From Patescibacteria group bacterium (GTDB taxonomy: Bacteria > Patescibacteriota > Microgenomatia > UM-FILTER-40-11): a DNA stretch of 64,000 bases. This document shows, one piece after another, positions 11,106 through 58,471 of this stretch (position 1 is the stretch's first letter; the number at the start of each line of letters is the position of its first letter). Both the position numbers and the translations under genes were made by a program. The notes under the pieces are model-generated. The model did not search any database, had not been told where the DNA came from, and worked only from the letters and a program-made list of their open reading frames with translations. The stretch spans positions 87,861 to 151,860 of the forward strand of contig DATKVM010000005.1 of assembly GCA_035530075.1 (NCBI GenBank), given 5' to 3'.

Positions 11106-12230
11106 TTATCTTAGGTATTTCCCAATATTGGCCACCTGTTCTTCGTCGGTTTTGGCGTAATGCATTGTCCCGTTTTCATCGTTAAGATAATACCAATAGG
11201 GAGAATCTTCCGGATTTAAAACCGCTTTAACCGAAGAAAGGCCGGGGTTACAAATTGGTCCCGGAGGCAAGCCCTGATAAACATAAGTATTATAAGCGGA
11301 TTTAACTTGTAAATCGCTTTGGTTCAGACCCTTGGGCCACCATTCACAAAAAAGTCCCGGCACTTTGCATTTAGCGCTAGCCACCGCGTACTGAACCGTT
11401 GCATCTGCCTGAAGCGGCCAGCCGCGGCGCCACCTTTTTAAAATAATGCTGGCGACCAAGCGACGATCCTTATCGGCCCGAGCTTCTCTTTCAACTATCG
11501 AAGCCAGCGTCAAAACCCCTTTTAAGCTCAAACCGCTCGCCTGGATTTCTGCCTCCAACCCGACTTTGGCTTTTTTCTCAAAATTACGACTAATAATCTT
11601 TAAGATTGCCCCCTGAGTCGCTTTGGGCGGGAAAAAGTAAGTATCGGGAAAAAGCTCACCCTCCAACTTTTGATCGGCAATTGTCTGACACCACTCCTTT
11701 AAGTCAATCACAAAGCCTTTTTCCACCAAAAGTTCGCCAATTTCCTCCTGCCGCAAACCCTCAACAATCGTCACCCGCTGGTCAGTTATCCCTTTAATCA
11801 GTAGCCGGGCAATTTCCGAAACGCCCATCGAAGGGGCAAACTGGTAGACCCCGGCCTGAACTTTCTTGGCTTTACCCGTTAAAAAAAGATAAAGCTTGAA
11901 ATGAAAAGGGCTTCTGATTAAATTGACCTCCTTTAAGCGACTGGCAATCTGAGCCATTGTCTCTCCACGGTCAATCGTAAAAACAACGGTTTTTTGTTTA
12001 CTGGAATCGACCGGCCGTAAACCGCCCAGCCACCAAAAAATTATGGCCAACCAAAGGACAAAAATTAAAATTAGGCCGTAAAAAGCCCACGAAAAAAGTT
12101 CTCTTTTACCAATTTTGGGTTTTAACATCAACTGCCGACTTTTAAACTTCTTCAAAAAGAGCCCGTCGATACTTCTTTGTTTTCCTATCAAGAATGAAAA
12201 TTCGACCGCATTTACAAGTGATTTTCTCAC
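11106..12230 (-). CDS. mltG: Endolytic murein transglycosylase MltG (YceG-like); the true start may be the internal Met at 12128
   Basis: N-terminal TM segment followed by a YceG-like domain (…LPPGPICNPG…, QADATVQYA). Confidence 0.8.
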   Translation of the reverse strand: MRKSLVNAVEFSFLIGKQRSIDGLFLKKFKSRQLMLKPKIGKRELFSWAFYGLILIFVLWLAIIFWWLGGLRPVDSSKQKTVVFTIDRGETMAQIASRLKEVNLIRSPFHFKLYLFLTGKAKKVQAGVYQFAPSMGVSEIARLLIKGITDQRVTIVEGLRQEEIGELLVEKGFVIDLKEWCQTIADQKLEGELFPDTYFFPPKATQGAILKIISRNFEKKAKVGLEAEIQASGLSLKGVLTLASIVEREARADKDRRLVASIILKRWRRGWPLQADATVQYAVASAKCKVPGLFCEWWPKGLNQSDLQVKSAYNTYVYQGLPPGPICNPGLSSVKAVLNPEDSPYWYYLNDENGTMHYAKTDEEQVANIGKYLR

Positions 12231-12342
12231 TCTCTCCCTGCCAATTTTCTTTCTTCCCCGCGCTCAATAAAGCCCCGCAACCAACGCATTGGCCCCGCGA
12301 GAGTAACCAAGCCTGAACCGGAGCGATAATATTCTTGAACAT
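12142..12342 (-). CDS. Small Cys-rich (zinc-ribbon-like) protein, 66 aa
   Basis: CVGCG...CKCG pattern; ATG preceded by AAGGAGGG 7 nt upstream and by a conserved leader hairpin shared with infB. Confidence 0.4.
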   Translation of the reverse strand: MFKNIIAPVQAWLLSRGQCVGCGALLSAGKKENWQGESEKITCKCGRIFILDRKTKKYRRALFEEV

Positions 12343-12371
12343 CTTAGGCCCTCCTTCGACTCGCCGTAGTT

Positions 12372-12755
12372 TTAATGAAGGCGGTCTAAATAAAATTCTA
12401 ACATAATTGCTGCCGCAAAAGCATCCTCTTTTTCGTGCCTAAATTTCCTTTTTCTCTTCAGCTTAAGGAGGAGTTTCTGAGCCTCCTGGCTCGTGAGCGT
12501 TTCATCGAAAAATTCCACTGCCAATCCCGTCTGCTTTCGCAACCGTTCACCAAACCGCCTAATTTCTTCTTCCATCTTCCCTCCCGGCACCCCGACAACA
12601 ATCTTCTCCACTCCTAATTCTTTGGCTAACTTTGCACTTTGCACTTTGAACTTTGAACTTGGCCAGACGGCCAACGGTTCCACCAACCGCGTTTGGGTCT
12701 CCCCCACGGCCAGCCCAATTTTCGCTCTCCCATAATCTATTCCTAATATTTTCAT
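12372..12755 (-). CDS. ruvX: Holliday-junction resolvase-like / pre-16S rRNA nuclease YqgF (RuvX)
   Basis: MKILGIDYGRAKIGLAVGE... canonical RuvX N-terminus, 127 aa. Confidence 0.85.
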   Translation of the reverse strand: MKILGIDYGRAKIGLAVGETQTRLVEPLAVWPSSKFKVQSAKLAKELGVEKIVVGVPGGKMEEEIRRFGERLRKQTGLAVEFFDETLTSQEAQKLLLKLKRKRKFRHEKEDAFAAAIMLEFYLDRLH

Positions 12756-12764
12756 ATGCTTGCT

Positions 12765-12803
12765 ACTAACTACTGGCTACTGGCTACTGGCTACTGGCTA
12801 CTA
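12765..12803. repeat. Tandem heptanucleotide repeat (ctactgg/ctggcta), about 5.5 copies
   Basis: ctactaa ctactgg ctactgg ctactgg ctactgg ctactat read directly; lies between the sortase stop and the ruvX start, and the last unit supplies the sortase stop codon. Confidence 0.9.
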
Positions 12804-13547
12804 TATTTTCGTCAGTCTCGCCCTGATAATCAACCTTCTTAAGTAAGTTCCTGGGGGAACACAAGTAATTAAAGTCAAATAAGCATCATCATAGCGCTGG
12901 GCCAAGATGGAAATATCGTTCGGCGCCACTTCGATCATTTGTTCTATCACAAATTTGTACCTAACCTGGCCATAATCAACAAAGATTTCATCACCGATTT
13001 TTAAGGTCGGCAGAGTCGAAAAAATTGTCAGATAGTTTTTCGGATTAAAAAATTGGGGCAAAACTGAATGGCCAAAAATAACCGTGTTACCAAACCGACC
13101 AGGGGAGGCGGTGCCCGGATATTGAACAAGACTCTTCTTCAAATCCTCCATTCCCACTACAACCACCGCTTTATCAATCCCCAGCTTGGGAATAGAAAAT
13201 TGATAAGTGTTAACCGCCTCTTCCGCAAAGGCGGTGTTTTCTTCCGGAAACCAATTGCTAGCTTTAGTGTAATCTACCAAATCAATTTCCGTTCCCAAAA
13301 CTTCCGTCTCGCCGTTGGGCGGGCCAAAAGTCTGAGCAATCGCGGCGTCCGAATTGGGACTAATAAAAGCCGTCGAAAAACGCGGGGAAATTAAGAGCTG
13401 ATAAGAAATAATGGGATAAGCGGCATTAATGAAAAAAAAGAGGCCAACGACGACTAACAAAACGGCCATAAACCGCGCGTTTAAGCGGCTAGCCTTACCC
13501 GCCGCTTTAGAGGGAGTCTGCCTTTTAACGTAGCGATAAGGGACCAT
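12801..13547 (-). CDS. Sortase family transpeptidase
   Basis: N-terminal TM, VIFGHS (His) and TLITCVPPG (catalytic Cys TLxTC) motifs. Confidence 0.8.
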   Translation of the reverse strand: MVPYRYVKRQTPSKAAGKASRLNARFMAVLLVVVGLFFFINAAYPIISYQLLISPRFSTAFISPNSDAAIAQTFGPPNGETEVLGTEIDLVDYTKASNWFPEENTAFAEEAVNTYQFSIPKLGIDKAVVVVGMEDLKKSLVQYPGTASPGRFGNTVIFGHSVLPQFFNPKNYLTIFSTLPTLKIGDEIFVDYGQVRYKFVIEQMIEVAPNDISILAQRYDDAYLTLITCVPPGTYLRRLIIRARLTKI

Positions 13548-15941
13548 TTAGAGTGTTTCAATCGTGACGTTAATATTCTGCTCTCGCAGAGGGAAAATCC
13601 TGAAGAAAGCAAAAAAACGGGGTTTGACCGTGACTTCCAAGCCAATTGACTGGCTCAAGCTCTTCAGGTAATTTTCTCCTTTACTAAAAGTCTTTCCCTT
13701 CAGCTCAACCGGGATTTTCTCCACCGCCATCTCGGGCAAAAATTCCTCTTTGACCCGCGCGGTATAAATTCCTTTCACCTTATCTTTAACTGCCGAGCTT
13801 CTCTCTTCCTTAAGCGGCTCTTTTTGATAACCGGATGGCACTAGACCGGCTACCGCTTTATCCGCTAAAATCCGGAAATTTTCATCCTTAATATAGGCCA
13901 GGGCAAAAACCGCTTTTTCCTCCAGGGTTAAGCTAGTCACTTCATCTCCAACCTCATGATTAAAACGGTCAGTTTTATTTTTTAATAATATGGTGCCAGT
14001 TAACGGGTGATCATTTTCTCCCAGTTTAGCTAAAAGCTCCTCCTTTGCCTTGGCTTCCAGCTCTGCTAAAAGGGCCTTTTGTAAATTTTCCCGGTCCTCG
14101 CGAGAAACTGCCTGGATTTCTCGGCTAGCGCCGCCGGAAAAAGCAGTGGTATTTTTGATTTTCAAATTACTAAAGAGGCCCTTTTCCGGAGAAAACTCCG
14201 AATTATTCGCTACATTATACTGGGTGCCAATATCAGCCGCCGTCACTGTCACTTTACCCTCACCCAGTTTAGCTTGAGGCGGGTTAGCCGCCCAATCAAC
14301 GCTGGCAGAAGCGATTTTCACTTCCTGGTCTAGGACAAATTTGGTTCCACTCGGACCTTTAATGACTGCTCCCTTAGCAAAAATCACCACCTTCGTATCC
14401 CCATTGTAAATCGTCACTTCGCCCTTGGCCTTGTCTCCCACTGTCTTTTTACCCTTCACTTCAGCCGCTTTGCTGCCTGATATCTCTGTCGTTATTTCGC
14501 TAGCCGGAACAATCATCTTCTCACTGTCCACCGCGCCCACTTCGTCAGAAACGGAGAATTCAAACTCTTTATCCACTCGCTGCGGCTGAACAAATATCTT
14601 CACTTGAGCCCGAGCAAAACGCCAAAAGCCGAAAAAAACCATTCCCAAAACAAAAATTAGGCTCGCCCCCAATAAAACCAAAGCGCGGTGCGAGGCAAAA
14701 CTAAAAGCCAACCGAGGAGTCGGCAAATGAAGCCCCGTCCCTGATTGAGGAACTTTTAATCGGCCAAAAGCTTTTTTGGGCAGAGAGAAAATAGCGGCTA
14801 AGGCGGAAAGCCGAGAACTTTGGGGAAAGGGGGCTTCCGGCAGGGACATTTCCGACTCCGCCGGTACTGTTTCTTCAGGTGAAGCAAAAGTTCCTGGCGG
14901 CGAAGGTGACTCATTGGCCATCGCCTCTACCGCTCCCGTCAATAAAATATCCTCTCCTTTGACGAAACCAAAATCACCCCCTGAAAGGCTTTCTTCTCTT
15001 TTCTCGCGGCTGACTTCCTCTTCCAGCTTTTCGGCTGATTCTTCTTTCACTACAGCGGGCGTTTCAACTTTCGCCTCGACAGTCTCTTCTTTCGCCGCTA
15101 CCTCCGACGCCGGGGCCGTCTCTTGAAGAGTCGCTTCAACTTTCTCTGCTGCCAAACCCAACTCGTGTTTACCGGCAATCATCACTGCCTTGACCTCAAA
15201 ACCGTCCAGAGCAATTTCCACTTTAGGGAACTGCAAAAAATTAAGCTTCTTGCCATTTTCCGGCCCCACCCACGGATAAGCAACTAAAGCTTGACGCAAT
15301 TCTTCAATCTCGCCAATCTCCGCGTCCTCAATTAAAAAGATACGGTTAGGCAAAACCCCCTGATAATTGAACCTCAATAATCCTTCCTCTAAATCAAGTG
15401 CCACGCTATCACTGCGGCCCACGACTTTACTCCCTACAAATTTCCCTTGGTTAATCAGAGAAACAACCATCTCGGTCTCGCCCAAATTTAGCAAAATAAT
15501 ATTCGGTAAGCCGCCCTCTTCTTTTTTAAGATAATGAGCGATCGCTTCCGGCGTCACCACAAACCCCAGTGATTTCAAAAGCAATTTCTTACAAAGGGCT
15601 TGAAGAATAATTCCCCTTTTCTTCTCCACATTATTACCCTCTACCCAATGCTCCGGTAAACCCAAGATTACTTTCGTCGGTTGCTGACCATCCAGATGGG
15701 GAAGTTTTGTCACCGCCGTCGCAATCGAAGCATCGGCCGCCACTACCAGCTCTTCCGCACTGTCATTACTCCAGCTTTCAGTTGAACCAAAAGTAATTTC
15801 TTCGCTTCCTGCTCCTCCCAGATTCCAAATGGCGCTCTTGACTTTTCTTTCGCTAATGACCAGGCCAAGACAGAATTCTACTGAAGATTGATTTTTTTCC
15901 AAAGGATTGATTTTATCTAAAATATTGGACAGTGGCAGCAT
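13548..15941 (-). CDS. Large membrane protein: N-terminal actin-like (FtsA/PilM-like) ATPase domain, E/K-rich linker, one TM helix, about 380-aa extracytoplasmic C-terminal domain
   Basis: Motifs LGLVISERKVKSAIWNLGG and ILLNLGETEMVVSLINQGKF...GRSDSV resemble the phosphate-1/phosphate-2 motifs of the actin fold; TM ALVLLGASLIFVLGMVFFGFW; start set at the Met at 15941 so that it abuts rather than overlaps alaS. Confidence 0.45.
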   Translation of the reverse strand: MLPLSNILDKINPLEKNQSSVEFCLGLVISERKVKSAIWNLGGAGSEEITFGSTESWSNDSAEELVVAADASIATAVTKLPHLDGQQPTKVILGLPEHWVEGNNVEKKRGIILQALCKKLLLKSLGFVVTPEAIAHYLKKEEGGLPNIILLNLGETEMVVSLINQGKFVGSKVVGRSDSVALDLEEGLLRFNYQGVLPNRIFLIEDAEIGEIEELRQALVAYPWVGPENGKKLNFLQFPKVEIALDGFEVKAVMIAGKHELGLAAEKVEATLQETAPASEVAAKEETVEAKVETPAVVKEESAEKLEEEVSREKREESLSGGDFGFVKGEDILLTGAVEAMANESPSPPGTFASPEETVPAESEMSLPEAPFPQSSRLSALAAIFSLPKKAFGRLKVPQSGTGLHLPTPRLAFSFASHRALVLLGASLIFVLGMVFFGFWRFARAQVKIFVQPQRVDKEFEFSVSDEVGAVDSEKMIVPASEITTEISGSKAAEVKGKKTVGDKAKGEVTIYNGDTKVVIFAKGAVIKGPSGTKFVLDQEVKIASASVDWAANPPQAKLGEGKVTVTAADIGTQYNVANNSEFSPEKGLFSNLKIKNTTAFSGGASREIQAVSREDRENLQKALLAELEAKAKEELLAKLGENDHPLTGTILLKNKTDRFNHEVGDEVTSLTLEEKAVFALAYIKDENFRILADKAVAGLVPSGYQKEPLKEERSSAVKDKVKGIYTARVKEEFLPEMAVEKIPVELKGKTFSKGENYLKSLSQSIGLEVTVKPRFFAFFRIFPLREQNINVTIETL

Positions 15942-15942
15942 G

Positions 15943-17751
15943 CTATTCCAATATAGCATAAATCCGTCTTTTGCCGGCTCCCGATGATTCTTCTTTCGTG
16001 ATTTTGAACCTACCCAAGACTCCAGTCCGTTCCGCATGAGGACCGCCACACACCTCTTTGGAGAGTTCACCAATGGTATAAACCTTTACCTGCTCCGCAT
16101 ATTTTTGTTCAAAAAAAGCTAAAGCGCCTTTTTCTTTCGCTTCCGCCAACCCCATGGTTTCCGCCGTCACCGGCAAATCCTTTTCAATTTGCTCATTCAC
16201 TAAATCTTCCACTTCTTTAATTTGCTCCTCAGTTAATTTTTCCGGCCAAGTAAAATCAAAACGCAAACGCTCGGCAGTTAAGTTTGACCCGACTTGATGA
16301 ACTTCGGATCCCAAAACTTGCCGCAAAGCCGCGTGCAAAAGATGAGTGGCAGTATGGTATTTGACTACCTGTTCCGACTGATCAGCCAATCCCCCAGCAA
16401 ACTTCTTTTCCGCCCCCGCCCGGGAAAGTTTTTGATGCTCGGCCGAAGCTCGGTCAAATTCTGCTTCATTCACATTGATATCTTTTTCTTTGGCCATCTC
16501 GGCCGTCAGTTCAATTGGAAAGCCAAAAGTCTCATACAAGAAAAAGGCAGTTTTACCTGGTAGTTTTTCTCCACTCGGGAGCCCGCCGATGATTTTTTCA
16601 AATTCTTTAATCCCTCGGGATAAAGTCTTACTAAACCTTTCCTCTTCTTTACTCAATTCCGCCAAAATTTTAACTTTTTCTTGAATAATTTCTGGGTAAA
16701 CCTCGCCCATTGTCTCCATCACCGACTCGGCCACTTCGGTGGCAAAAGGTTTCTCAATCCCGAGCATTTTTCCAAAACGAATGGCTCTTCGGATTAATCT
16801 TCTTAAAACATAGCCCTGCTCCGTGTTTGAAGGAATTATTCCATCTGCAATCAAAAACGTGGCCGCTCTAATATGGTCTGCTATAATTCTGAACCGCTTC
16901 CTTACATCAACCCAGCATTGCTTACCATCCTTTATATACTCCTCATCTGACTTTTCGCCATATTTCAAACCCGATAATCCTTCAATCTTTTGAACAATCG
17001 GCCAAAGAACATCTGTTCTGTAAGCGTCATACTCATTGTTCATAACCATTAGCATCCGCTCGACCCCCATGCCCGTATCAATATTCTTTTGCTTCAGCGG
17101 CTCAAATCTTCCCTCGGCCGTACAGTTATACTGCATAAAGACATCGTTCCAGAATTCTAGATACTTTCCACAACCACAGCCGGGGCGGCAATCAGGCCCA
17201 CAGGCTTCCTCCCCTGTGTCGTAATACATTTCCGAGTCTGGCCCACACGGCCCAATTTTACCAGCCGGACCCCACCAATTATCTTTTTTTCCGAGAAAGT
17301 AAATTCTTTCTTTAGGAATGCCGACTTTCTCCCACAAAGCGGCGGTCTCATCATCGCGCGGAGCATCTTCATCCCCGGCAAAACAAGTGACAGAAATCTT
17401 CTCTTCTGGAATTCCCATCACTTTCGTCATGAATTCATAACTCCAAGGAATCATCTCTTTCTTCCAATAATCGCCAAGCGACCAGTTTCCCATCATCTCA
17501 AAAAATGTCTGATGGCAAGTATCACCAACCTCGTCAATATCCACCGTCCGCAAACATTTTTGGACACTGGCCAGTCTTTTTCCTAAAGGATGCGGCTCAC
17601 CCAAAAGATAGGGGACTAAAGGGTGCATGCCGGCGGAAATAAATAAAGTGGTGGGGTCATTTTCCGGAATCAGCGAAGCCGAAGGTAAAACCTTATGCCC
17701 TTTTTCCCTAAAAAAATCCAAATACTTTTTCCTAAGTTCTTTAGAAGTCAT
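15943..17751 (-). CDS. alaS: Alanine--tRNA ligase, short form (602 aa, lacks C-terminal DHHA1 region)
   Basis: MTSKELRKKYLDFFREKGHKVLPSASLIP...FTNAGM-like...editing-domain HTATHLLHAAL...CGGPH. Confidence 0.93.
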   Translation of the reverse strand: MTSKELRKKYLDFFREKGHKVLPSASLIPENDPTTLFISAGMHPLVPYLLGEPHPLGKRLASVQKCLRTVDIDEVGDTCHQTFFEMMGNWSLGDYWKKEMIPWSYEFMTKVMGIPEEKISVTCFAGDEDAPRDDETAALWEKVGIPKERIYFLGKKDNWWGPAGKIGPCGPDSEMYYDTGEEACGPDCRPGCGCGKYLEFWNDVFMQYNCTAEGRFEPLKQKNIDTGMGVERMLMVMNNEYDAYRTDVLWPIVQKIEGLSGLKYGEKSDEEYIKDGKQCWVDVRKRFRIIADHIRAATFLIADGIIPSNTEQGYVLRRLIRRAIRFGKMLGIEKPFATEVAESVMETMGEVYPEIIQEKVKILAELSKEEERFSKTLSRGIKEFEKIIGGLPSGEKLPGKTAFFLYETFGFPIELTAEMAKEKDINVNEAEFDRASAEHQKLSRAGAEKKFAGGLADQSEQVVKYHTATHLLHAALRQVLGSEVHQVGSNLTAERLRFDFTWPEKLTEEQIKEVEDLVNEQIEKDLPVTAETMGLAEAKEKGALAFFEQKYAEQVKVYTIGELSKEVCGGPHAERTGVLGRFKITKEESSGAGKRRIYAILE

Positions 17752-24015: not shown

Positions 24016-24648
24016 TTACTCTACCTTCACTTTTAAAGTGACTGTCCTTTTTTTCCCCTGACGGTTACTGGATTCTACAATCAGCATATTCTCCCCCCGT
24101 GGCAAAATAATTTCTTCCTTGAAGCTTCCGTCTTCGGCAATAGAAATGAGACTGCCATTGATTTTCACCGAAGCATCTTTATCGGTTTTACCTACTATTG
24201 GCACTTTCTCCTTAAAAAGCTGGCCATCTTTCGGCGAAGTCACCTCCAAAGGAGGCGCGGAAGAAAAACTCATATATTGCCGGACAAAGAAAAAGACAAA
24301 GCCCAAAATCAAAAGGGAGACCCCGGCAATGAGCGTGGCCTTGGGCGTCCAGTAATAATTTTTCTCGGCCAAAGACTCCACCATTCCTCGGGGAATAATT
24401 TGTCCCTTTTGGTTTTCCCGAAAATCCCGCCGGAAAACCGCCAAAACGCTGCTCACTTCTAACTCCAAAGCTTGGGCGTAATTACGGATAAAGCCCTTAA
24501 CAATGGTGCTTTCCGCGATGACGGCAAAATCATTCTTTTCAATTGCTTCCAGATACTTGCGCCGGATTTTGGTTTCCTTTTCAATTTCTTCTAAAGAAAG
24601 CCCCAAGTCTTTTCTTTTTTCGGAAAGAATTTCGCCGACAGTCCTCAT
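24016..24648 (-). CDS. rodZ: RodZ-like cytoskeleton protein (XRE-type HTH + TM + C-terminal domain)
   Basis: N-terminal HTH LSEKRKDLGLSLEEIEKETKIRRKYLEAIE, one TM, C-terminal beta-rich domain. Confidence 0.65.
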   Translation of the reverse strand: MRTVGEILSEKRKDLGLSLEEIEKETKIRRKYLEAIEKNDFAVIAESTIVKGFIRNYAQALELEVSSVLAVFRRDFRENQKGQIIPRGMVESLAEKNYYWTPKATLIAGVSLLILGFVFFFVRQYMSFSSAPPLEVTSPKDGQLFKEKVPIVGKTDKDASVKINGSLISIAEDGSFKEEIILPRGENMLIVESSNRQGKKRTVTLKVKVE

Positions 24649-24654
24649 GAAGCT

Positions 24655-26721
24655 TTAACCTTCCTGGGAAGCGTAATCGCCGGCATTTTTCATTAACACT
24701 TCTCTTGGTTTGGCTCCCTCTCCCAGGCCAATAATGCCTGCCGCTTCCAGCTGGTCAATAATGCGAGCCGCCCGGTTATAACCAATCGATAGTCGCCGCT
24801 GCAGCAAAGAAGCGGAGGCCCGGTCAAACTGGCAAACAATTTTCACCGCTTCCTCAAAAAATTCATCTCGGTCGCCGGCACCCCCCGCCCCACCGCCAGC
24901 AGCTGGTCCCACATCTTCCGTCACTTCTTCGGTATAAACCGGCCGGACGCCGGTTTTGTTCAGGAATTCAATGAGCTTCTGAACCTCACCATCGGAAACA
25001 AAAGCACCTTGAATCCGACTCGGTTTAGCCTGATCCGGCGGAATATAAAGCATATCTCCTCGACCCAAAAGCTTCTCCGCCCCCGGGCTGTCTAAAATTA
25101 CCCGAGAGTCAGTCATTGAGGCGACGGCAAAGGAAAGCCGGGCCGGAATGTTGGCCTTAATTAAGCCTGTCAAAACATCAACGGAGGGTCGCTGAGTCGC
25201 AATCACTAAGTGAATTCCTGTTGCTCGGGCCATTTGGGCCAGGCGGCAGATATTATCCTCCACTTCCGCCGGGGCAAACAAAATAATATCAGCCAGCTCG
25301 TCAATGATAATGACAATGTAGGGCAAGGCCTGGAAACCGGAAAGCTCATTAAACATTTCAATATTACGCGCTCCTGCCTGGGCAAAGAGCTTGTAGCGAC
25401 GGTCCATTTCCCGAGTGGCCCACTTTAAAGCCTTAACGACATTTTCCGGCTCGACAATCACCGGCGTTAGCAAATGAGGCACACCGGCGTATTGAGTGAA
25501 TTCTACTCGTTTAGGGTCAACTAAGATTAGTCTCACTTCAGAAGGAGTGGTCCGAAAAAGGAAAGTGGAAATCCAAGAGTTAAGGAGAACCGATTTTCCG
25601 CTACCGGTTTGGCCGGCAATCAAAACATGAGGCATTTTACTGATGTTGGCTGTTTTTGGCTGGCCAGAAACATCTAACCCCAAGGGGGTCAAAAGCTTGT
25701 TTTTTGGATCGCGCATCGCGGAGCTACTAAGAATTTGCCTTAGGGTCACTATTTCCAAAGAGCGGTTAGGCAGTTCAATTCCCACTAAAGACCGGCCGGG
25801 AATCGGCGCTTCCACCCGGATTTGGCCGGTCGGGGCCGCTAAAGCTAAGGCTAGGTCATTGGCTAAAGCGGTAATTTTAGAAAGCTTGGTCCCTAAAGCA
25901 ACTTCAATCGCATATTGAGTCACTGCCGGCCCATCATTAATTTCCACCACCCGGGCAGAAATGCCAAAAGAATCAAATGTCCGTTCAATGGTCGCCGCAT
26001 TGGTCTTTACATCCCCTCGGTCTGCTTTACCCCCGGCACTATCAATTAAGAGCGAAAGGGGCGGATAATTCCAAACCGCATTTTGCGCCCCCGGCACATT
26101 GGCTGCCGCTGCCGGTAAATCTTCGATTTCATCTGTCCCCGGCTTTGTCTGCTCCCGAGTCATTTCAGAACGAGTCACCACCGATTTATTCCCCAACTTC
26201 CCCTGAATAAATTGAGGGGTCTTCGCTTTACCCGAGACGCCTCTAAAAGAGCGGAAAAATTCCAAAACCGCTAAGATAATTTGGTCAAATGAAGTATTCG
26301 AAAGAACCACAAAACCAACCAGGGTGCAACTCACCAAAACTAAATAAGTCCCCACCGGCGTGATTAAATAAGCCAACTGGGCAAAAATTTGCTCGCCCAC
26401 CAAACCGGACTTAGTTAAGCTCATTAAGGCCGTGGCCATCAACCCTCCACCCGCTAAAACCGCCGCCTGATTCCAGGGAAGGTCAAACCGCGTCAGCATT
26501 AACCCGCCTAAGAGGGAGAAAAAAACCAAGAAAATCGTTCCCCAGCCGAAAATCTTTAACAAAAACAAATTGAGTTGATATAAAACTATTCCCTGTTGAG
26601 TAAAAGAAAGCGCTACCAATAAGGCAAAACAAAAAAGGAAAATGTAAGAAATAGAGTAAAGGGCGTCTTTTTTAAGCTTCAGCCGAAAACGGCGCTTTAA
26701 CCAACCTTTTCTCCTGGCCAT
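24655..26721 (-). CDS. ftsK: DNA translocase FtsK/SpoIIIE
   Basis: Four N-terminal TM helices; Walker A GQTGSGKS; gamma domain ...LLQRRLSIGYNRAARIIDQLE. Confidence 0.92.
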   Translation of the reverse strand: MARRKGWLKRRFRLKLKKDALYSISYIFLFCFALLVALSFTQQGIVLYQLNLFLLKIFGWGTIFLVFFSLLGGLMLTRFDLPWNQAAVLAGGGLMATALMSLTKSGLVGEQIFAQLAYLITPVGTYLVLVSCTLVGFVVLSNTSFDQIILAVLEFFRSFRGVSGKAKTPQFIQGKLGNKSVVTRSEMTREQTKPGTDEIEDLPAAAANVPGAQNAVWNYPPLSLLIDSAGGKADRGDVKTNAATIERTFDSFGISARVVEINDGPAVTQYAIEVALGTKLSKITALANDLALALAAPTGQIRVEAPIPGRSLVGIELPNRSLEIVTLRQILSSSAMRDPKNKLLTPLGLDVSGQPKTANISKMPHVLIAGQTGSGKSVLLNSWISTFLFRTTPSEVRLILVDPKRVEFTQYAGVPHLLTPVIVEPENVVKALKWATREMDRRYKLFAQAGARNIEMFNELSGFQALPYIVIIIDELADIILFAPAEVEDNICRLAQMARATGIHLVIATQRPSVDVLTGLIKANIPARLSFAVASMTDSRVILDSPGAEKLLGRGDMLYIPPDQAKPSRIQGAFVSDGEVQKLIEFLNKTGVRPVYTEEVTEDVGPAAGGGAGGAGDRDEFFEEAVKIVCQFDRASASLLQRRLSIGYNRAARIIDQLEAAGIIGLGEGAKPREVLMKNAGDYASQEG

Positions 26722-52650: not shown

Positions 52651-53220
52651 ATGCCTCAAGATAAGAGAATCAACCTTCTTCCTAAGGATAAGTTCGAATC
52701 CTCTACTCTGGGCAGATTTCTCAAGTGGTCCACTTCCACTGGTCGAGCCATTGTTGTTCTAACTGAGTTCGTGGTTATTTGCGCCTTTCTCTCCCGTTTC
52801 TATTTCGATACTCGACTAGCTAATCTTTTTGATGAAATCAATCAAAAAAAAGCGATTGTTGCTTCGGCGGCTGCCTTTGAAGAGGACTTTCGCCGAACCC
52901 AAGAAAAAATTCAAGTCATCAAAGTTCTCTTGACCCAAGAATCAAAACCCTCCGTTTTAATTAGCGAAATCAGTCAGCTTTTGCCCTTGGATGTTTCTCT
53001 AACCGCTCTCAATTTGGAGGAAAAGGACATCACTCTCAGTGGCTATACTTTTACCGAAAATGGCTTACGCCTTTTCTGGATTAGTCTTAATCAATATCCG
53101 GAATTGGAAGAAGTAACCCTGACTAATATCTCTTCTCGCAAAGAAGGTATGCCCGGTCTTGATTTCGTCATCAAGGCCACAATTAAAGCTAAAAAGACAG
53201 TTGGTGAAACTAAAAAATAA
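52651..53220 (+). CDS. pilN: PilN-like type IV pilus assembly protein
   Basis: RINLLP N-terminal signature, single TM, about 190 aa. Confidence 0.55.
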   Translation: MPQDKRINLLPKDKFESSTLGRFLKWSTSTGRAIVVLTEFVVICAFLSRFYFDTRLANLFDEINQKKAIVASAAAFEEDFRRTQEKIQVIKVLLTQESKPSVLISEISQLLPLDVSLTALNLEEKDITLSGYTFTENGLRLFWISLNQYPELEEVTLTNISSRKEGMPGLDFVIKATIKAKKTVGETKK

Positions 53221-53253
53221 ACTGAAAAATAAAAAAGGGAAGAAAAATCGACT

Positions 53254-53919
53254 ATGAATTTCGACTGGAAAACGGAATATTATCGTTACCGACGCTACTT
53301 CTTTAGCCTGGGCAAAATCGGCAAAACAGCGCCAGTGCGTTCTTTCGCTTGGCTTTCTTTAACGCTTTTTGCCATTGCTTTTTTCGCGGTAATGGCAATT
53401 CGGCCGACTTTAATAACCATCGCTAAACTTAATCGAGAAATTAAGGACAAGAAAGACGCCAGTCAAAAACTACAAACTAAAATCAATGCGATCGTTGCCG
53501 CTCAAGCTCTCTACGCGCGAAACTTAGACCATCTCCCTTTGTTGGAGGAAGCGCTCCCGGAAAAAAGCGAATTTCCCCGGCTGGCCTTCTTTTTCGAAGA
53601 AAACGCCACTGCCTCAAACGTAGAGCTTAAAACTCTAAACTTTGAAAAAATCGGCGTAAGCGAAAAAGGCTCTTCGTCTTCATCTTCGACGGCGAATTCT
53701 CTTTATTTCTCCCTCAATGTTGCGGGTGATTATGCCTATCTCAAAGACTTCACTCGCCGCTTGGAAACTTCCCGCCGAATTCTTAAAATTGATTCCGCCG
53801 CCTTTAGTCAAGTTAAAAAGGAAGAAGGCTGGCAACTTACTTTGCGAGTAACTGGCCAAGCTTCATTTAGTAAAAATCAAGTTGAGCCTAAACCGACTCA
53901 AGCACCGAGCCAAAAATGA
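53254..53919 (+). CDS. pilO: PilO-like type IV pilus assembly protein
   Basis: Single TM followed by a coiled-coil and a C-terminal alpha/beta domain; directly downstream of the PilN-like gene. Confidence 0.45.
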   Translation: MNFDWKTEYYRYRRYFFSLGKIGKTAPVRSFAWLSLTLFAIAFFAVMAIRPTLITIAKLNREIKDKKDASQKLQTKINAIVAAQALYARNLDHLPLLEEALPEKSEFPRLAFFFEENATASNVELKTLNFEKIGVSEKGSSSSSSTANSLYFSLNVAGDYAYLKDFTRRLETSRRILKIDSAAFSQVKKEEGWQLTLRVTGQASFSKNQVEPKPTQAPSQK

Positions 53920-54122: not shown

Positions 54123-55481
54123 GTGAAAAAACTTCTCCAACCAAAAAGCTTACCCGCTCCTCTTGGCCTCGCACTGGCCCTATTGGGGCTTTTAGGGGGC
54201 GTTTTAGCGATTAATCGCATCCAAAACTTGGCCTCCCGCGCTTCTTTAGAAACCGTTCCCCAGCAGCTGAAAATTACCAATATCGGCAGTTCTTCCTTTG
54301 TCGTCAGTTGGACCACGGCCGAAAAAACCACCGGGGCCATTGCTGTCGGTGAAACGACAGAAATGGGAGAAATTAAAAAGGACTTTCGTGACCTAGAATC
54401 ATCAACCTTCACTTCTTCCTCGGTTCATTTTGTTTTTATCGATAACCTCAAACCCCAAACCAAGTATTACTTCAAAATTATTTGCGGTGGCAAAAATTAT
54501 GACGATTCAGGAAAGCCTTTCGAGGTTGTCACTGCTCCAGCCAAAGTGCCCCCCGATAACGATTTAGCTTTTGGGAAAATCCTAACTCCTGAGGGTCAAC
54601 CGGCAGCAGGAGCAATTGTCTATCTCTCCCTCGCCAACACTCTTCCTCAAGCGGCGCTTACGGATAAGGAGGGTAATTGGGTTATCGCTCTTTCGACGGC
54701 TCGGACGACCGACCTGCAAGACTTTTCTCACTATGATCGGAGCGCTCAAATCGAAGAAATTTATGTCCGAGCCGAAAACGAGACTGCCACCGCAACGATC
54801 TCGACCGGCAATGACAGTCCTGTTCCCGATATTATTCTTGGCCAAAATTATAACTTTTTGAGCATAATGCCGATTCTTTCCCCAACCCCCAACCCGGTAG
54901 TAGGCCGCGGTGGCTTACCCCAAAGCGACTTGTCCCATACTTCTGTCGAAGAATTGGAATTGGCGATTACTTCTCCGGCCGAAAATGAAGAAATCAGTAC
55001 GGGGTTACCGGAATTTTTTGGCACTGGACCAAAAAGCGAAAGACTCCAAATCACGGTAGAATCTAACGAAAAAATTAATAGCCAAGTCACCGTTAATTCG
55101 ACCGGAGAGTGGAGTTGGACACCTCAAGCTTCCCTTTCTCCAGGCGAACACCAATTAACCGTTTCCTATACGGACGCCAAAGGAATATTGCAAAAGGTAA
55201 CCCGCTCCTTTATTGTCTTGGCCGCCGGTGAAAGTAGCTTGCCGTCTTTTACCGCTACTCCCTCGGGGGAAACTGCTGTTCCCCCGCCAACGGCGACCCC
55301 CACTCCCAAAGCAAAAGCTTCACCCACGGCGACGCCCAAACCGACCGCCACTCCTCAACCCACTACTTTGCCTTCAACTGAAAGCGCGGCTCCCTCTTCC
55401 GGTAACTTCTTGCCCACTAAAATTTTCTTAGGCATAGGAGCCGCTATTCTCATTGTCGGTGCAGCTCTTTTGCTACTCTAA
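54123..55481 (+). CDS. Surface protein with signal/TM anchor, fibronectin-III-like domain(s), Pro/Thr-rich linker and a C-terminal LPTK + hydrophobic anchor
   Basis: ...SSFVVSWTTAEKTTGAIAVG...KPQTKYYFKI... FN3-like; ...PTATPTPKAKASPTATPKPTATPQPTT... linker; C-terminus NFLPTKIFLGIGAAILIVGAALLLL. Confidence 0.6.
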   Translation: MKKLLQPKSLPAPLGLALALLGLLGGVLAINRIQNLASRASLETVPQQLKITNIGSSSFVVSWTTAEKTTGAIAVGETTEMGEIKKDFRDLESSTFTSSSVHFVFIDNLKPQTKYYFKIICGGKNYDDSGKPFEVVTAPAKVPPDNDLAFGKILTPEGQPAAGAIVYLSLANTLPQAALTDKEGNWVIALSTARTTDLQDFSHYDRSAQIEEIYVRAENETATATISTGNDSPVPDIILGQNYNFLSIMPILSPTPNPVVGRGGLPQSDLSHTSVEELELAITSPAENEEISTGLPEFFGTGPKSERLQITVESNEKINSQVTVNSTGEWSWTPQASLSPGEHQLTVSYTDAKGILQKVTRSFIVLAAGESSLPSFTATPSGETAVPPPTATPTPKAKASPTATPKPTATPQPTTLPSTESAAPSSGNFLPTKIFLGIGAAILIVGAALLLL

Positions 55482-55518: not shown

Positions 55519-56805
55519 ATGAAAATCGCCATTATTGGCGGAGGGTTCACCGGATTAACGGCTGCCCTCCGTTTAGCTAAAGAAGGTCATCTGGTGACTC
55601 TCTTTGAGAAAGAGGATCAGCTGGGAGGATTGGCCTCCTCGTTCAAAAAAAACGGCTGGGATTGGCCCTTGGAACATTATTTCCACCATTATTTTAGTTC
55701 CGATCAAGCAGTAAAAAGGTTAGTCCAAGAGCTGCATCTGGAAAAAAAATTATCTTACTTTAAACCGAAAACCTCGGTTTATCTTGAAGGAAAGGTCTCT
55801 CGTTTTGATAGTTTCTCAAGCCTCCTTTTTTTTCCCAAACTAAAATTGACCGACAAATTAAGAACCGGACTGACTATTCTTTTTTTGAAATTTAACCCTT
55901 TTTGGCAACCCTTAGAAAAGATTCCGGCAGCCACTTTTATCCAAAAAACCATGGGGAAAGAAACTTACCGTCTAATCTGGCAGCCACTTTTGCAAAGTAA
56001 GTTTGGAGCCTTGGCTAACCAAATTCCCGCTTCTTGGTTTTGGACAAGAATCAAAAAAAGAAGTTTTGCCTTAGGATATTTAAACGGGGGAACTGCCGCT
56101 CTCCTTAGCGCCTTAACAGAAGAAATCAAAAAGAAACAGGGGCAAATTCTTCTGGGCCAAGCAGTCAGCCAGATTAAAAAAGCTCCAGACGGATTTGTCC
56201 TTTATTTCCAAAGCCAGCCGTATCCGACCAAATTTGAAAAAGTAATGGCCACCGTTCCTCCAGCCACTTTGGCCAAAATCGCTAGCGAACTTCCATTGAC
56301 AGAGAAAGCCAGCCTCCAAGCCCTTAAAAGTTTGGGCAGTCTTTGCCTGATTCTGGCTCTCAAGAAAAGCCTGCTTACCGACGGGACTTATTGGCTTAAT
56401 GTTAACGAAAGCCATTTCCCCTTCGTCGCTGTCGTTGAACATACCAATTTAATAGACAAAAAACATTACGGTCAAAATGTTCTTTTATATATTGGCGGTT
56501 ATTACCCGGCCCAACATCCCTTTTTCCGCCAAAATAAAGCGGCTCTTTTCCGGAAATTTCTTCCTTATTTGCAAAAGATTAATCCTTCCTTCGACTTTAA
56601 TCAAAACCTGAACGAATACTGGCTTTTCAAGAATGAATACAGTCAGCCGATAGTTTCGGCTAACTATTCTCAGAATCGGCCATTGGTTAAAACTAGCCTT
56701 CCGGGTCTTTATTGGGCTAGCCTTCATCATATTTACCCGGAAGACCGTGGGGTTAACTCTGCTATTCTTTTAGGAGAAAAACTTGCCAATGAAATTGTTT
56801 CTTAA
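55519..56805 (+). CDS. FAD/NAD(P)-binding oxidoreductase (amine-oxidase/protoporphyrinogen-oxidase/UGM-like superfamily)
   Basis: MKIAIIGGGFTGLTAALRLAKEGHLVTLFEKEDQLGG Rossmann dinucleotide-binding motif. Confidence 0.7.
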   Translation: MKIAIIGGGFTGLTAALRLAKEGHLVTLFEKEDQLGGLASSFKKNGWDWPLEHYFHHYFSSDQAVKRLVQELHLEKKLSYFKPKTSVYLEGKVSRFDSFSSLLFFPKLKLTDKLRTGLTILFLKFNPFWQPLEKIPAATFIQKTMGKETYRLIWQPLLQSKFGALANQIPASWFWTRIKKRSFALGYLNGGTAALLSALTEEIKKKQGQILLGQAVSQIKKAPDGFVLYFQSQPYPTKFEKVMATVPPATLAKIASELPLTEKASLQALKSLGSLCLILALKKSLLTDGTYWLNVNESHFPFVAVVEHTNLIDKKHYGQNVLLYIGGYYPAQHPFFRQNKAALFRKFLPYLQKINPSFDFNQNLNEYWLFKNEYSQPIVSANYSQNRPLVKTSLPGLYWASLHHIYPEDRGVNSAILLGEKLANEIVS

Positions 56806-58471
56806 AAAGAATTTCAAGCTACTGGCAATTCTTTTGGTCGCTTTTTTTCTGCGTTTTGTGGGAATTTCCTGGGGACTTCCTTATCACTTCCACCCTGATG
56901 AGTGGAATATGGCCAATGCTGTTTCTCAACTTTCTTGGGCCGATAAACTGCAGCCTCACTTTTTTGCCTATGGCCAGCTACCTCTTTACCTAAGCTTTTT
57001 TTCTGGCCGACTTTATAACCTTATCCCCTGGATTAATCTTGACCAAGTAAGTCCAACTGAGGCAACCTTTTTTCTGCGTTTCTGGTCCGCCCTCGCTGGC
57101 GTCGGCACTGTCTCCCTCGTTTACCTAATTACAAAGCGTCTGCTGACTACTAACTACTGTCTACTGGCTACTCTGTTGGCCGCTTTCACTCCCGGCTTAA
57201 TTCAAATTGCCCATTTTGGCACTACCGAATCCTTGCTCTCCTTTTTCTTTCTGGCAACTGTCTATTTTTCAATAAAAATCGTTGAAGAAAATCGATCAAG
57301 AAACTATTTTTTTGCCGGATTGCTTTTAGGACTGGCCTTAGGAACTAAAATCAGCGCCCTGGTTTTTGCCTTTCCGATCATTTTTGCTCTTCTCTTAAAA
57401 CTTCGGCAAGCGATGATTAAGAAGTCTTCGTGGTGTAGAGGGGGTGGTCTCTTCTTCCTTTTTCTTTGCGCCACCGCCATCTTTTTCTTTGTCTCTTCCC
57501 CATATGTTATCCTCAATTTCTCGGAAACAAAAAGAATCCTTCTTTACGAGGCTCAAGTGGCCAGTGGCCAAATCCCTGTCTTTTACACCCGACAATTCTT
57601 GAAGACCACTCCTGTTTTGTTTCAACTGGAAAAAATTTTCCCTTATGCCCTCGGCTGGCCAATTTTTATCCTCGGAATGGCCGGATTTCTTTTAATATTA
57701 TTTTTAATAGCCAAAAAATTACTCAAAACAAAACATTTTTCTTTTACCCTTACTACTTACTACTTACTACTGACTACTTTTCTGGTTTACTTCTTTTCCC
57801 AGGCTTTTCTTTTTTGCAAATGGACGCGCTTTATGGCCCCCATTTTTGCCTTCTTCCCCATCTTCGCCACTTTCTTCCTAAGTTACCTAAGTAACTTAAG
57901 AATTAAGGCTTTTTTAGTCGGAATTGCTCTTCTTCCGGGAATAGTCTTTTCTTCAATCTATTTCCGGCCCGATATCCGCTTTCAGGCCTCGGACTGGATT
58001 TATAAAAACATTCCTGCCAGCTCGCGAATTTTATCGGAGACCGGTAATGTCATCGACATCCCTATTCTCCCGCTTTCTAATCCTGACCACTCCCTCTCTT
58101 CCGTATCCTTCGACTTTTATCGCCTCGATGAAAATCCCCGGCTTCTCTCCCAATTGCTAGATTCACTCAGCAACAGCGACTACGTCTTTGTTCCTAGTCG
58201 CCGGTTATTCGCCAACCACTTAAGACTACCCCAAGACTACCCACTCACCGCCAAATATTATAAGCTTTTGTTTTCGGGTCAATTAGGTTTCACCGAAATT
58301 AAAAAATTCCAACCCTTTCCCAACTTATCACTTATCACTTATCACTTATCACTTTCCGACGAATCTGCCGAAGAAACTTGGTCAGTCTTTGACCACCCGG
58401 TCGTTAGAGTTTTCCAAAAAAAGGTCAGTCTAACTCGCCAGCAATATGAAGAACTATTTAAAGAAGATTAA
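56789..58471 (+). CDS. GT-C type membrane glycosyltransferase (PMT/ArnT-like, HPDE loop) containing heptanucleotide repeats
   Basis: GLPYHFHPDEWN loop, at least 10 TM segments, C-terminal soluble domain; ATG 56789 preferred over TTG 56783. Confidence 0.6.
   Translation: MKLFLKKNFKLLAILLVAFFLRFVGISWGLPYHFHPDEWNMANAVSQLSWADKLQPHFFAYGQLPLYLSFFSGRLYNLIPWINLDQVSPTEATFFLRFWSALAGVGTVSLVYLITKRLLTTNYCLLATLLAAFTPGLIQIAHFGTTESLLSFFFLATVYFSIKIVEENRSRNYFFAGLLLGLALGTKISALVFAFPIIFALLLKLRQAMIKKSSWCRGGGLFFLFLCATAIFFFVSSPYVILNFSETKRILLYEAQVASGQIPVFYTRQFLKTTPVLFQLEKIFPYALGWPIFILGMAGFLLILFLIAKKLLKTKHFSFTLTTYYLLLTTFLVYFFSQAFLFCKWTRFMAPIFAFFPIFATFFLSYLSNLRIKAFLVGIALLPGIVFSSIYFRPDIRFQASDWIYKNIPASSRILSETGNVIDIPILPLSNPDHSLSSVSFDFYRLDENPRLLSQLLDSLSNSDYVFVPSRRLFANHLRLPQDYPLTAKYYKLLFSGQLGFTEIKKFQPFPNLSLITYHLSLSDESAEETWSVFDHPVVRVFQKKVSLTRQQYEELFKED
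57749..57776. repeat. Heptanucleotide tandem repeat (cttacta x3 + ctgacta) inside a GT-C CDS
   Basis: Read directly; encodes TLTTYYLLLTT. Confidence 0.8.
58324..58354. repeat. Perfect heptanucleotide tandem repeat (cttatca x4.4) inside a GT-C CDS
   Basis: cttatcacttatcacttatcacttatcactt read directly; encodes LSLITYHLSLS. Confidence 0.9.

Follow-up and report, generated by a model that had tools for sequence, protein, structure and literature searches.

An envelope-spanning fusion protein predicted between alaS and a sortase gene

We analysed a 64,000-nt stretch of DNA from a Patescibacteria group bacterium (contig DATKVM010000005.1, positions 87,861-151,860; hereafter the window) and in it a minus-strand gene, here called gene X, that lies between alaS and a sortase gene (Table 1). 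Its product is predicted to be bitopic: an N-terminal domain with an FtsA/PilM-like actin fold is connected, through an acidic linker and one transmembrane helix, to an extracytoplasmic domain (ectodomain) that resembles the baseplate J/gp47 wedge proteins of phages. In other lineages the two halves have counterparts encoded by adjoining genes, and gene X appears to be the fused form of such a pair. Taken alone, this anatomy and this fusion history are conclusions in which we have high confidence.

The longest open reading frame (ORF) of gene X spans positions 13548-16073. Its homologues begin at MLPLS, which corresponds to the ATG at 15941, and this start is therefore favoured, in agreement with a preliminary description of the locus that had placed the gene at 13548-15941. 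The TAG stop codon of alaS lies 1 nt upstream of this ATG. At the other end, the TAA stop of gene X is immediately followed by the ATG of the sortase gene, so that the two genes do abut without a gap (13547/13548), as had been described.

The preliminary description had also raised the prospect that a frameshift in the assembly has artificially joined two genes; a misassembly could do the same. We give such explanations practically no credence. A first search recovered 64 homologues with 28-100% identity, nearly all of 700-840 aa and covering the whole query, and a profile built from 37 homologues retrieved 10,319 cluster representatives at E<=1e-3, of which 2,460 (representatives at 50% identity) reach E<=1e-30. 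The best 150 profile matches are all between 583 and 836 aa long, and nearly all are full-length fusions. Two loci that looked split at first (L030 and L041) were found to hold single ORFs of 743 and 798 aa. Assemblies of independent and varied origin thus have the same full-length architecture, and we conclude that the fusion is real and conserved in related genomes.

Table 1. Gene X, its parts and other features of the window
Feature	Positions	Strand	Remarks
Gene X	13548-15941	-	797 aa; bitopic fusion of predicted actin-fold domain, linker, transmembrane helix and baseplate-J-like ectodomain
N-terminal peptide, aa 1-16	15894-15941	-	conserved MLPLSxILxKINPL; disordered or short-helical in the model; K10 nearly invariant
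Actin (ASKHA) core, aa 20-262	15156-15884	-	degenerate, FtsA/PilM-like; subdomains 1A and 2A only
Linker, aa 266-418	14688-15146	-	acidic, low-complexity, cytoplasmic; pI 4.65
Linker motif GDFGFVKGEDIL	14943-14978	-	near-invariant; consensus [DE][FL]GF[VI]xxxD[IV]
Transmembrane helix, aa 419-441	14619-14687	-	single; hydropathy peak 2.58
Extracytoplasmic domain, aa 442-797	13551-14618	-	356 aa; predicted complete baseplate J/gp47-like wedge fold
Beta-barrel core of J-like domain, aa 500-610	14112-14444	-	aligned by Pfam PF04865, phrog_6 and PDB 8v3w_E
Sortase	12801-13547	-	248 aa; N-terminal transmembrane helix; catalytic TLITC motif; Pfam Sortase 2.3e-22
alaS	15943-17751	-	upstream neighbour; short alanyl-tRNA synthetase (AlaRS), 602 aa; conserved block
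ruvX	12372-12755	-	conserved block
66-aa ORF	12142-12342	-	between ruvX and mltG; CxxC...CxC pattern, zinc-ribbon-like; no Pfam match
mltG	11106-12230	-	YceG-like endolytic transglycosylase; conserved block
pilN and pilO	52651-53919	+	pilN with N-terminal INLLP, PF05137 1.8e-10; pilO PF04350; no pilM alongside
Ig/fn3-domain surface protein	54123-55481	+	452 aa
HTH_25 protein	24016-24648	-	210 aa
ftsK	24655-26721	-
PMT_2 glycosyltransferase 1	56783-58471	+
PMT_2 glycosyltransferase 2	58446-60200	+
PMT_2 glycosyltransferase 3	60210-61745	-
GT4 glycosyltransferase	61761-62927

A predicted non-catalytic actin-fold domain

The AF2 (AlphaFold2) model of residues 1-265 (pLDDT 85.9, pTM 0.82) consists of two bare RNase-H-like halves, each beta-beta-beta-alpha-beta-alpha-beta-alpha. 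This is an ASKHA fold, and the best fold matches are FtsA and PilM. The actin-like N-terminus proposed in the preliminary description thus holds as far as the fold is concerned; its length does not, as the folded part covers ~265 aa and not 330. At the sequence level the domain matched no Pfam or NCBIfam model at E<=1, including TIGR01174, PF14450, PF11104 and TIGR01175, and the comparison of its profile with PDB sequences returned FtsA alone, at E 0.36. The same weak alignment, to S. aureus FtsA, sets the two stretches that had been read as phosphate motifs on the phosphate-1 and phosphate-2 motifs of FtsA, where gene X reads LVISERKVKS and LNLGETEM, respectively.

The positions of these motifs had therefore been correctly recognised, but the residues of an active site are missing from them. 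In an alignment of 196 family members, the position of the phosphate-1 Asp is occupied by E75/V59/Q18 and that of the phosphate-2 Asp by G51/N39/S35/R20, and the adenosine GGG motif is lost. P198, W224, F235 and P239 are essentially invariant in the same alignment. Because the catalytic Asp and Gly residues are absent, the label "ATPase" is not justified for gene X. Subdomains 1C and 2B are also lacking, both in the AF2 model and in hhalign alignments, which show deletions of ~95 and ~55 residues at those positions. In FtsA these two subdomains serve polymerisation and partner binding. We take the domain to be a non-catalytic core with a degenerate nucleotide site, a conclusion drawn from its sequence. 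The preliminary description had envisaged an active actin-like ATPase filament in the cytoplasm that is coupled across the membrane to wall assembly. Gene X does have an actin fold and a transmembrane architecture; however, the family has not kept the phosphate-1, phosphate-2 and adenosine motifs and the subdomains for polymerisation are deleted, and this already disfavoured explanation strikes us as very improbable.

Linker, topology and a predicted baseplate-wedge ectodomain

Between the two folded domains lie, as had been described, a low-complexity linker and one transmembrane helix. Exactly one strongly hydrophobic helix was found in each of the 37 aligned members, always at the same alignment position. 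The helix comes only after 418 residues, and the protein lacks a signal peptide, from which we infer, by the usual topology rules, that the N-terminus is cytoplasmic and the C-terminus outside. The linker contains one of the best conserved motifs of the protein, GDFGFVKGEDIL (G325 in 184/196 members, F326 in 193/196 and D331 in 166/196), which is probably a short binding motif. DFGF-like motifs also occur in the linkers of P0069 and P0073, two of the unfused relatives presented below, which indicates that the motif belongs to the J-like half.

The preliminary description had noted a large extracytoplasmic region for which it recognised no match. The region is indeed there, with a length of 356 aa, and matches can now be named. 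In Foldseek searches with the ectodomain model (pLDDT 88.9), 338-365 columns, that is the whole ectodomain, aligned to J/gp47 proteins of ~350 aa with a probability of 1.0; the template modelling scores are low (~0.22) because the domain orientations differ from those of the J/gp47 proteins. The ectodomain also matches phrog_6, "baseplate wedge subunit" (E 1.2e-8), and PDB 8v3w_E (E 0.004), with which it has the pattern A..IG..YN / F.GG.S in common. The Pfam model Baseplate_J (PF04865) matches 32 of 37 family members, with a best E of 2.3e-6; the window protein itself scores 15 bits, under the cut-off of 21.1. The barrel core holds the family-invariant motifs GKKTVGDKAxGEVxIYN, AxxIGxxYN and FSGGxSRE, and PGAP names relatives of gene X "baseplate J/gp47 family protein". 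Judged from the model, the ectodomain appears to be a complete baseplate-wedge fold. No other tail, baseplate, sheath, tube or spike genes were found near gene X in the window or in the loci examined. A prophage origin of the locus was considered and rejected, given that no phage genes are nearby and that gene X lies between alaS and rpoBC.

Unfused relatives and the origin of the fusion

A search with the ectodomain profile found P0069, P0073, P0075 and P0077 with E values from 1e-79 to 1e-17. Such unfused J-like relatives are 513-617 aa long and have the same transmembrane helix and J-like ectodomain, with an N-terminal domain of ~85 aa instead of the actin fold. In 6/6 loci (L044, L046, L047, L049, L050 and L051), an FtsA-like gene of 407-433 aa (PF14450) lies immediately upstream of the unfused J-like gene, and in five of the six the pair is flanked by alaS and/or ruvX-mltG. 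The best NCBIfam model for these partner proteins is TIGR01174 ftsA, with 84-115 bits, which is under the cut-off (pilM, 29-38 bits), and they retain DIGT, DIGGGTTD and LCGGG.

We compared the family of gene X N-domains with the partner family by hhalign. The two are homologous (Prob 97.6%, E 4e-12, 235 columns, gene X residues 1-247), with a common C-terminal YPW...F..PK.E motif and two large gaps in gene X exactly at the FtsA-type subdomains 1C and 2B. Even in plain tblastn searches, the partner matches some gene X N-domains at E ~1e-4. The homology of the N-domain to the partner, together with the adjoining position of the two genes in unfused relatives, indicates that gene X is a fusion of a two-gene module. 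These sequence comparisons indicate that a reduced copy of the partner, with a degenerate nucleotide site, now stands where the unfused J-like proteins have their small N-terminal domain.

The ~85-aa cytoplasmic domain of the unfused proteins (P0069, P0073, P0075, P0077 and the gene at 9281-10927 of L051) has the consensus LYIDxDDDIxxIIxKI...PKRSTxLQSxVNLKLLKK and no Pfam match, and a (V/I)PDF(D/G)RFKK motif stands just ahead of the transmembrane helix. A SpoIIAA/STAS-like fold has been assigned to this domain by Wang et al. (PMC10633639). In L050, a Saccharimonadia-type contig of 1.19 Mb, a 433-aa protein with no Pfam match is encoded between the J-like gene and ruvX-mltG (12086-13387); it could be an extra component of the module in that lineage.

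Conservation of the gene neighbourhood

Gene X is part of a block of minus-strand genes in the order rpoC-rpoB-mltG-(66-aa ORF)-ruvX-sortase-X-alaS. The same order is found around gene X homologues of 49%, 40% and 28% identity, and in 39 species-level GTDB genomes assigned to Shapirobacteria, Woesebacteria, the Microgenomates group and "Patescibacteria group". By tblastn, the sortase gene directly follows gene X in 36/39 GTDB loci, and the remaining three contigs end earlier. The spacer between gene X and the sortase gene is at most 46 nt in all 37 computable loci, with a 4-nt overlap in ten of them and 0 nt in the window. The sortase neighbour noted in the preliminary description is therefore conserved. 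The only tie between the two genes is gene order, and it is specific to Microgenomatia. mltG is near gene X in all loci, and LysM-CHAP hydrolase genes are near the J-like genes of unfused lineages.

The sortase itself meets no NCBIfam class cut-off. Gene X was considered as its substrate and rejected: the protein ends in ...NINVTIETL and has neither a C-terminal transmembrane helix nor an LPXTG-type sorting signal. The sole, weak candidate for a sortase substrate in the window is the Ig/fn3-domain surface protein encoded after pilN/pilO, which has a C-terminal transmembrane helix (...NFLPTKIFLGIGAAILIVGAALLLL), no LPXTG motif and no basic tail.

Among the other members of the block, the AlaRS of the window has the catalytic and tRNA_SAD editing domains and no C-terminal domain, and its counterparts in homologous loci are 581-659 aa long. 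The 66-aa ORF overlaps the start of the longest mltG ORF, and ORFs of 66-67 aa occupy the same place in L002, L003 and L004. Several of the GTDB records (L005, L008, L009, L010, L014, L015 and others) bear titles such as "uncultured Gammaproteobacteria", "Pseudomonadales", "Clostridia" or "Bacillota"; on records with the typical Patescibacteria block, these are evidently placeholder or wrong taxonomic labels.

The unfused pair of Southlakia epibionticum and alternative roles

The supplementary tables of a study by Wang et al. (2023, Cell; PMC10633639) list an unfused pair, SEML1_0656/SEML1_0655, in the cultivated saccharibacterium Southlakia epibionticum. SEML1_0656 carries the PROKKA name "pilus assembly protein PilM", the assignments K03590 and PF14450, and FtsA-like ECOD domains. 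SEML1_0655 is a 556-aa "baseplate J/gp47 family protein" with ECOD domains described as STAS/SpoIIAA-like (6-105), beta-barrel, G3P-like and gp6 C-terminal domain III. Around the pair lie alaS (0657), ruvX (0654), mltG (0653) and a gene for a LysM protein (0652), and both genes of the pair are flagged as belonging to core and Patescibacteria-enriched families. In the transposon sequencing (Tn-seq) data of that study, the calls at three time points are NE/NE/GD for SEML1_0656 (2427, 660 and 221 reads) and NE/ES/ES for SEML1_0655 (373, 34 and 24 reads). These results show that disrupting the unfused pair costs fitness in Southlakia. The pair is not discussed in the main text of Wang et al. (PMC10633639).

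The same tables list a canonical FtsA (SEML1_0174) beside FtsZ, both essential, and a pilus PilM (SEML1_0104) with a PilN-like neighbour, all separate from the pair (PMC10633639). We had considered that the partner might simply be the organism's own FtsA, given that TIGR01174 is its best model, that it bears FtsA labels and that ftsA and ftsZ are far apart in TM7x. The separate FtsA and PilM of Southlakia rule this out and indicate that the partner is a dedicated third paralogue. Literature searches on sortases in Microgenomates, on baseplate J proteins with Patescibacteria and FtsA, and on the CPR (Candidate Phyla Radiation) divisome returned no description of the gene X protein; a preprint on the Pam pilus proved unrelated to it. 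The unfused pair is thus catalogued but uncharacterised. We came across no account of its fusion, of an actin-fold part that has lost the ATP site, 1C and 2B, or of the invariant coupling to a sortase gene.

The Tn-seq depletion, which arose during passage on the host, bears on the idea that a phage-baseplate part has been domesticated by these presumed episymbionts as a surface device for attaching to or puncturing a host. A complete wedge fold in a Patescibacteria-enriched family would suit such a device. However, no companion baseplate, sheath, tube or spike genes are nearby, the neighbourhood is a housekeeping one, conservation is very broad, and the Tn-seq design cannot tell host interaction from basic physiology, a limit that the authors themselves state (PMC10633639). 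We regard a host-contact device as distinctly improbable.

A role in cell division would instead make the protein a membrane anchor of FtsA descent, connecting the Z-ring with septal wall enzymes outside the cell. The family from which the N-domain derives is FtsA-like, the partner fits PF14450 and TIGR01174 best, MltG, LysM-CHAP and sortase genes are neighbours, and the gene is a core-genome gene whose family is near-universal in Microgenomatia. Against this, Southlakia has the canonical essential FtsA beside FtsZ, distinct from the partner of the J-like protein, disruption of the partner results in a growth defect only, and neither the window nor any fetched locus contains an ftsZ gene. Moreover, gene X lacks subdomain 2B, which in FtsA is the site of the FtsZ peptide, as well as 1C. 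No canonical FtsA was found in the window or in the flanks of the loci. A divisome component is, on balance, an unlikely identity for gene X.

The bitopic architecture with an actin-fold domain also fits GspL, and gene X could be the PilM-PilN/GspL-type assembly platform of a type IV filament-like machine, a secretion system or a sortase-dependent pilus. The adjoining sortase gene and the PROKKA name of the Southlakia partner point in this direction. So does P0079 (421 aa), a distant relative which consists only of a basic tail, a transmembrane helix and an ectodomain and is encoded directly downstream of a PilB/T2SSE-family ATPase (L048, 5302-8266); this is a hint of a connection between type IV filament-like machines and some branches of the J-like ectodomain family. 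Nevertheless, no gene X locus contains a pilin, PilB, PilC or PilD gene, Southlakia has a separate pilus PilM-PilN pair, and the partner scores 115 bits with TIGR01174 and 37.6 bits with TIGR01175. In PilM, subdomain 1C forms the PilN-binding groove, and the INLLP peptide of PilN is bound in the groove between 1A and 1C; gene X has no 1C, nor does it have the ferredoxin-like periplasmic domain of PilN and GspL. Finally, the window encodes genuine PilN and PilO proteins ~37 kb from gene X, which indicates that gene X is not the pilus alignment protein. A platform for pilus assembly or secretion is therefore another role that we think has little chance of being correct.

Other features of the window

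Downstream of the pilN/pilO region, three consecutive genes encode multi-pass PMT_2 (dolichyl-phosphate-mannose protein mannosyltransferase-like) glycosyltransferases, and a GT4 glycosyltransferase gene adjoins this trio, which suggests a capacity for heavy surface glycosylation. The 210-aa HTH_25 protein combines a RodZ-type helix-turn-helix with a Glucodextran_B-like domain and may be a RodZ-like bitopic protein; its gene adjoins ftsK and is kept beside it in L001-L003. Almost all 2-kb bins of the window (1-64000) have a negative GC skew, and most genes are on the minus strand. A similar strand-composition disparity has been reported for a complete Microgenomates genome (PMC7143001).

Discussion

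We propose that gene X encodes, as one hard-wired polypeptide, a module that spans the envelope, is enriched in Patescibacteria and elsewhere consists of two proteins. In Saccharimonadia-type genomes these are a dedicated third FtsA/PilM-like paralogue with an intact ATP site and a bitopic STAS-like/J-like protein. In Microgenomatia, the actin-fold protein appears to have shed subdomains 1C and 2B and its nucleotide-binding residues, and to have displaced the small N-terminal domain of its bitopic partner. The module may act in the manner of GspL or PilM-PilN, in which case an actin-fold part would clamp a bitopic protein from the cytoplasmic side and couple inside to outside; in Microgenomatia this coupling would now be covalent and nucleotide-independent. 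The fusion of the genes, together with their strict adjacency where they are separate, argues that the two parts of the module must act together.

On the cytoplasmic side, the non-catalytic actin-fold domain would serve as a docking module and, with the linker peptide [DE][FL]GF...D[IV], would engage cytoplasmic partners. Outside, the J-like ectodomain would make up a platform within the wall zone; in baseplates, wedge proteins of the J/gp47 fold oligomerise. In Microgenomatia, the translationally coupled sortase, and perhaps MltG, may act at this platform or be positioned by it. The coupled sortase and the recurrent wall-enzyme neighbours, MltG and LysM-CHAP, suggest a role in cell-wall or surface assembly. 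As a whole package, a transmembrane scaffold of the GspL or PilM-PilN style that serves the cell wall or surface is the explanation we prefer, tentatively and with a chance of being right that falls somewhat short of even. The role of gene X in wall or sortase function, taken as its own claim, is possible but doubtful.

Several considerations weigh against this scaffold and its role. Docking, platform formation and a functional tie to the sortase or to cell-wall enzymes are all things that we infer. The linkage to a sortase gene is limited to Microgenomatia, and the Southlakia sortases SEML1_0327 and SEML1_0711 are not linked to the pair. The whole alaS-X-srt-ruvX-mltG-rpoB block is syntenic, including alaS and rpoB, for which a functional tie is implausible, and this makes adjacency weak evidence, and the alaS-ruvX-mltG cluster is widespread in other bacteria that have no gene X. 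Neither the window nor any of the 51 fetched loci encodes an LPXTG-type substrate. In addition, the Tn-seq depletion of SEML1_0655 could in part reflect polarity on the essential ruvX just downstream.

A more far-reaching possibility, which we consider unlikely, is an undescribed core envelope structure, in which J/gp47-like ectodomains, a phage-baseplate wedge turned to cellular use, form a baseplate-like ring or platform outside and a dedicated third actin-fold paralogue anchors or controls it from inside; in Microgenomatia, this structure would be fused, nucleotide-independent and the working site of the housekeeping sortase. If true, it would be a new kind of organiser of cell-wall or surface assembly without counterpart in studied bacteria. 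The ultrasmall Patescibacteria account for a large part of the diversity of bacteria, and next to nothing has been learned about the construction of their envelope. The family described here is huge, belongs to the core genome and, in its unfused form, has a fitness phenotype in the sole genome-wide screen available for the group, and its members are labelled just "hypothetical" or "baseplate J/gp47 family protein". The fusion can be read as a Rosetta stone: it tells us that the J-like membrane protein works jointly with the actin-fold paralogue, and that one whole class can do without ATP turnover by the actin-fold part. It also points to a testable gene pair in the genetically tractable Saccharibacteria and to a possible partner of the sortase that is near-universal in Microgenomatia, and it would be a plain example of a fold from phage baseplates put to housekeeping use in cells.

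Among known systems, GspL and PilM-PilN resemble gene X in joining a cytoplasmic actin-fold module, via a single transmembrane helix, to an extracytoplasmic domain. GspL has a nucleotide-independent, reduced actin fold in one polypeptide. Its chain order (actin fold, one transmembrane helix and extracytoplasmic domain in a single polypeptide) is also that of gene X, which differs from it in having neither a GspL Pfam match nor a ferredoxin-like fold and no type II secretion system genes nearby. Compared with PilM/PilN, gene X matches neither the PilM models PF11104 and TIGR01175 nor a PilN model, and is not encoded with pilN/pilO. FtsA (TIGR01174, PF14450) is related through the phosphate-1 and phosphate-2 segments, which in gene X align with S. 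aureus FtsA, and through the ancestral partner family, which scores best on FtsA models. In contrast to FtsA, gene X lacks 1C (SHS2), 2B, the ATP-site residues and the C-terminal amphipathic helix, encodes an integral and not a peripheral membrane protein, and is not found with ftsZ.

With baseplate wedge proteins of the J/gp47/gp6 type (PF04865 and phrog_6; for example diffocin CD1371 and Mu gp47), the ectodomain has a multi-domain fold in common over ~350 residues, whereas gene X itself is cellular, membrane-anchored and part of a core housekeeping locus. The beta-barrel domain of GlxA from Streptomyces lividans (PF21110) has only the barrel in common with it, GlxA being a copper oxidase with unrelated further domains. 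The SEML1_0656/SEML1_0655 pair is homologous to the parts of gene X in its actin-fold partner and its ectodomain and has the corresponding neighbourhood (alaS ... ruvX-mltG). It consists of two genes where gene X is one, its partner retains the ATP-site motifs and subdomains 1C and 2B that gene X lacks, its J-like protein begins with a STAS/SpoIIAA-like domain where gene X has the degenerate actin fold, and, unlike gene X, it has no adjoining sortase gene.

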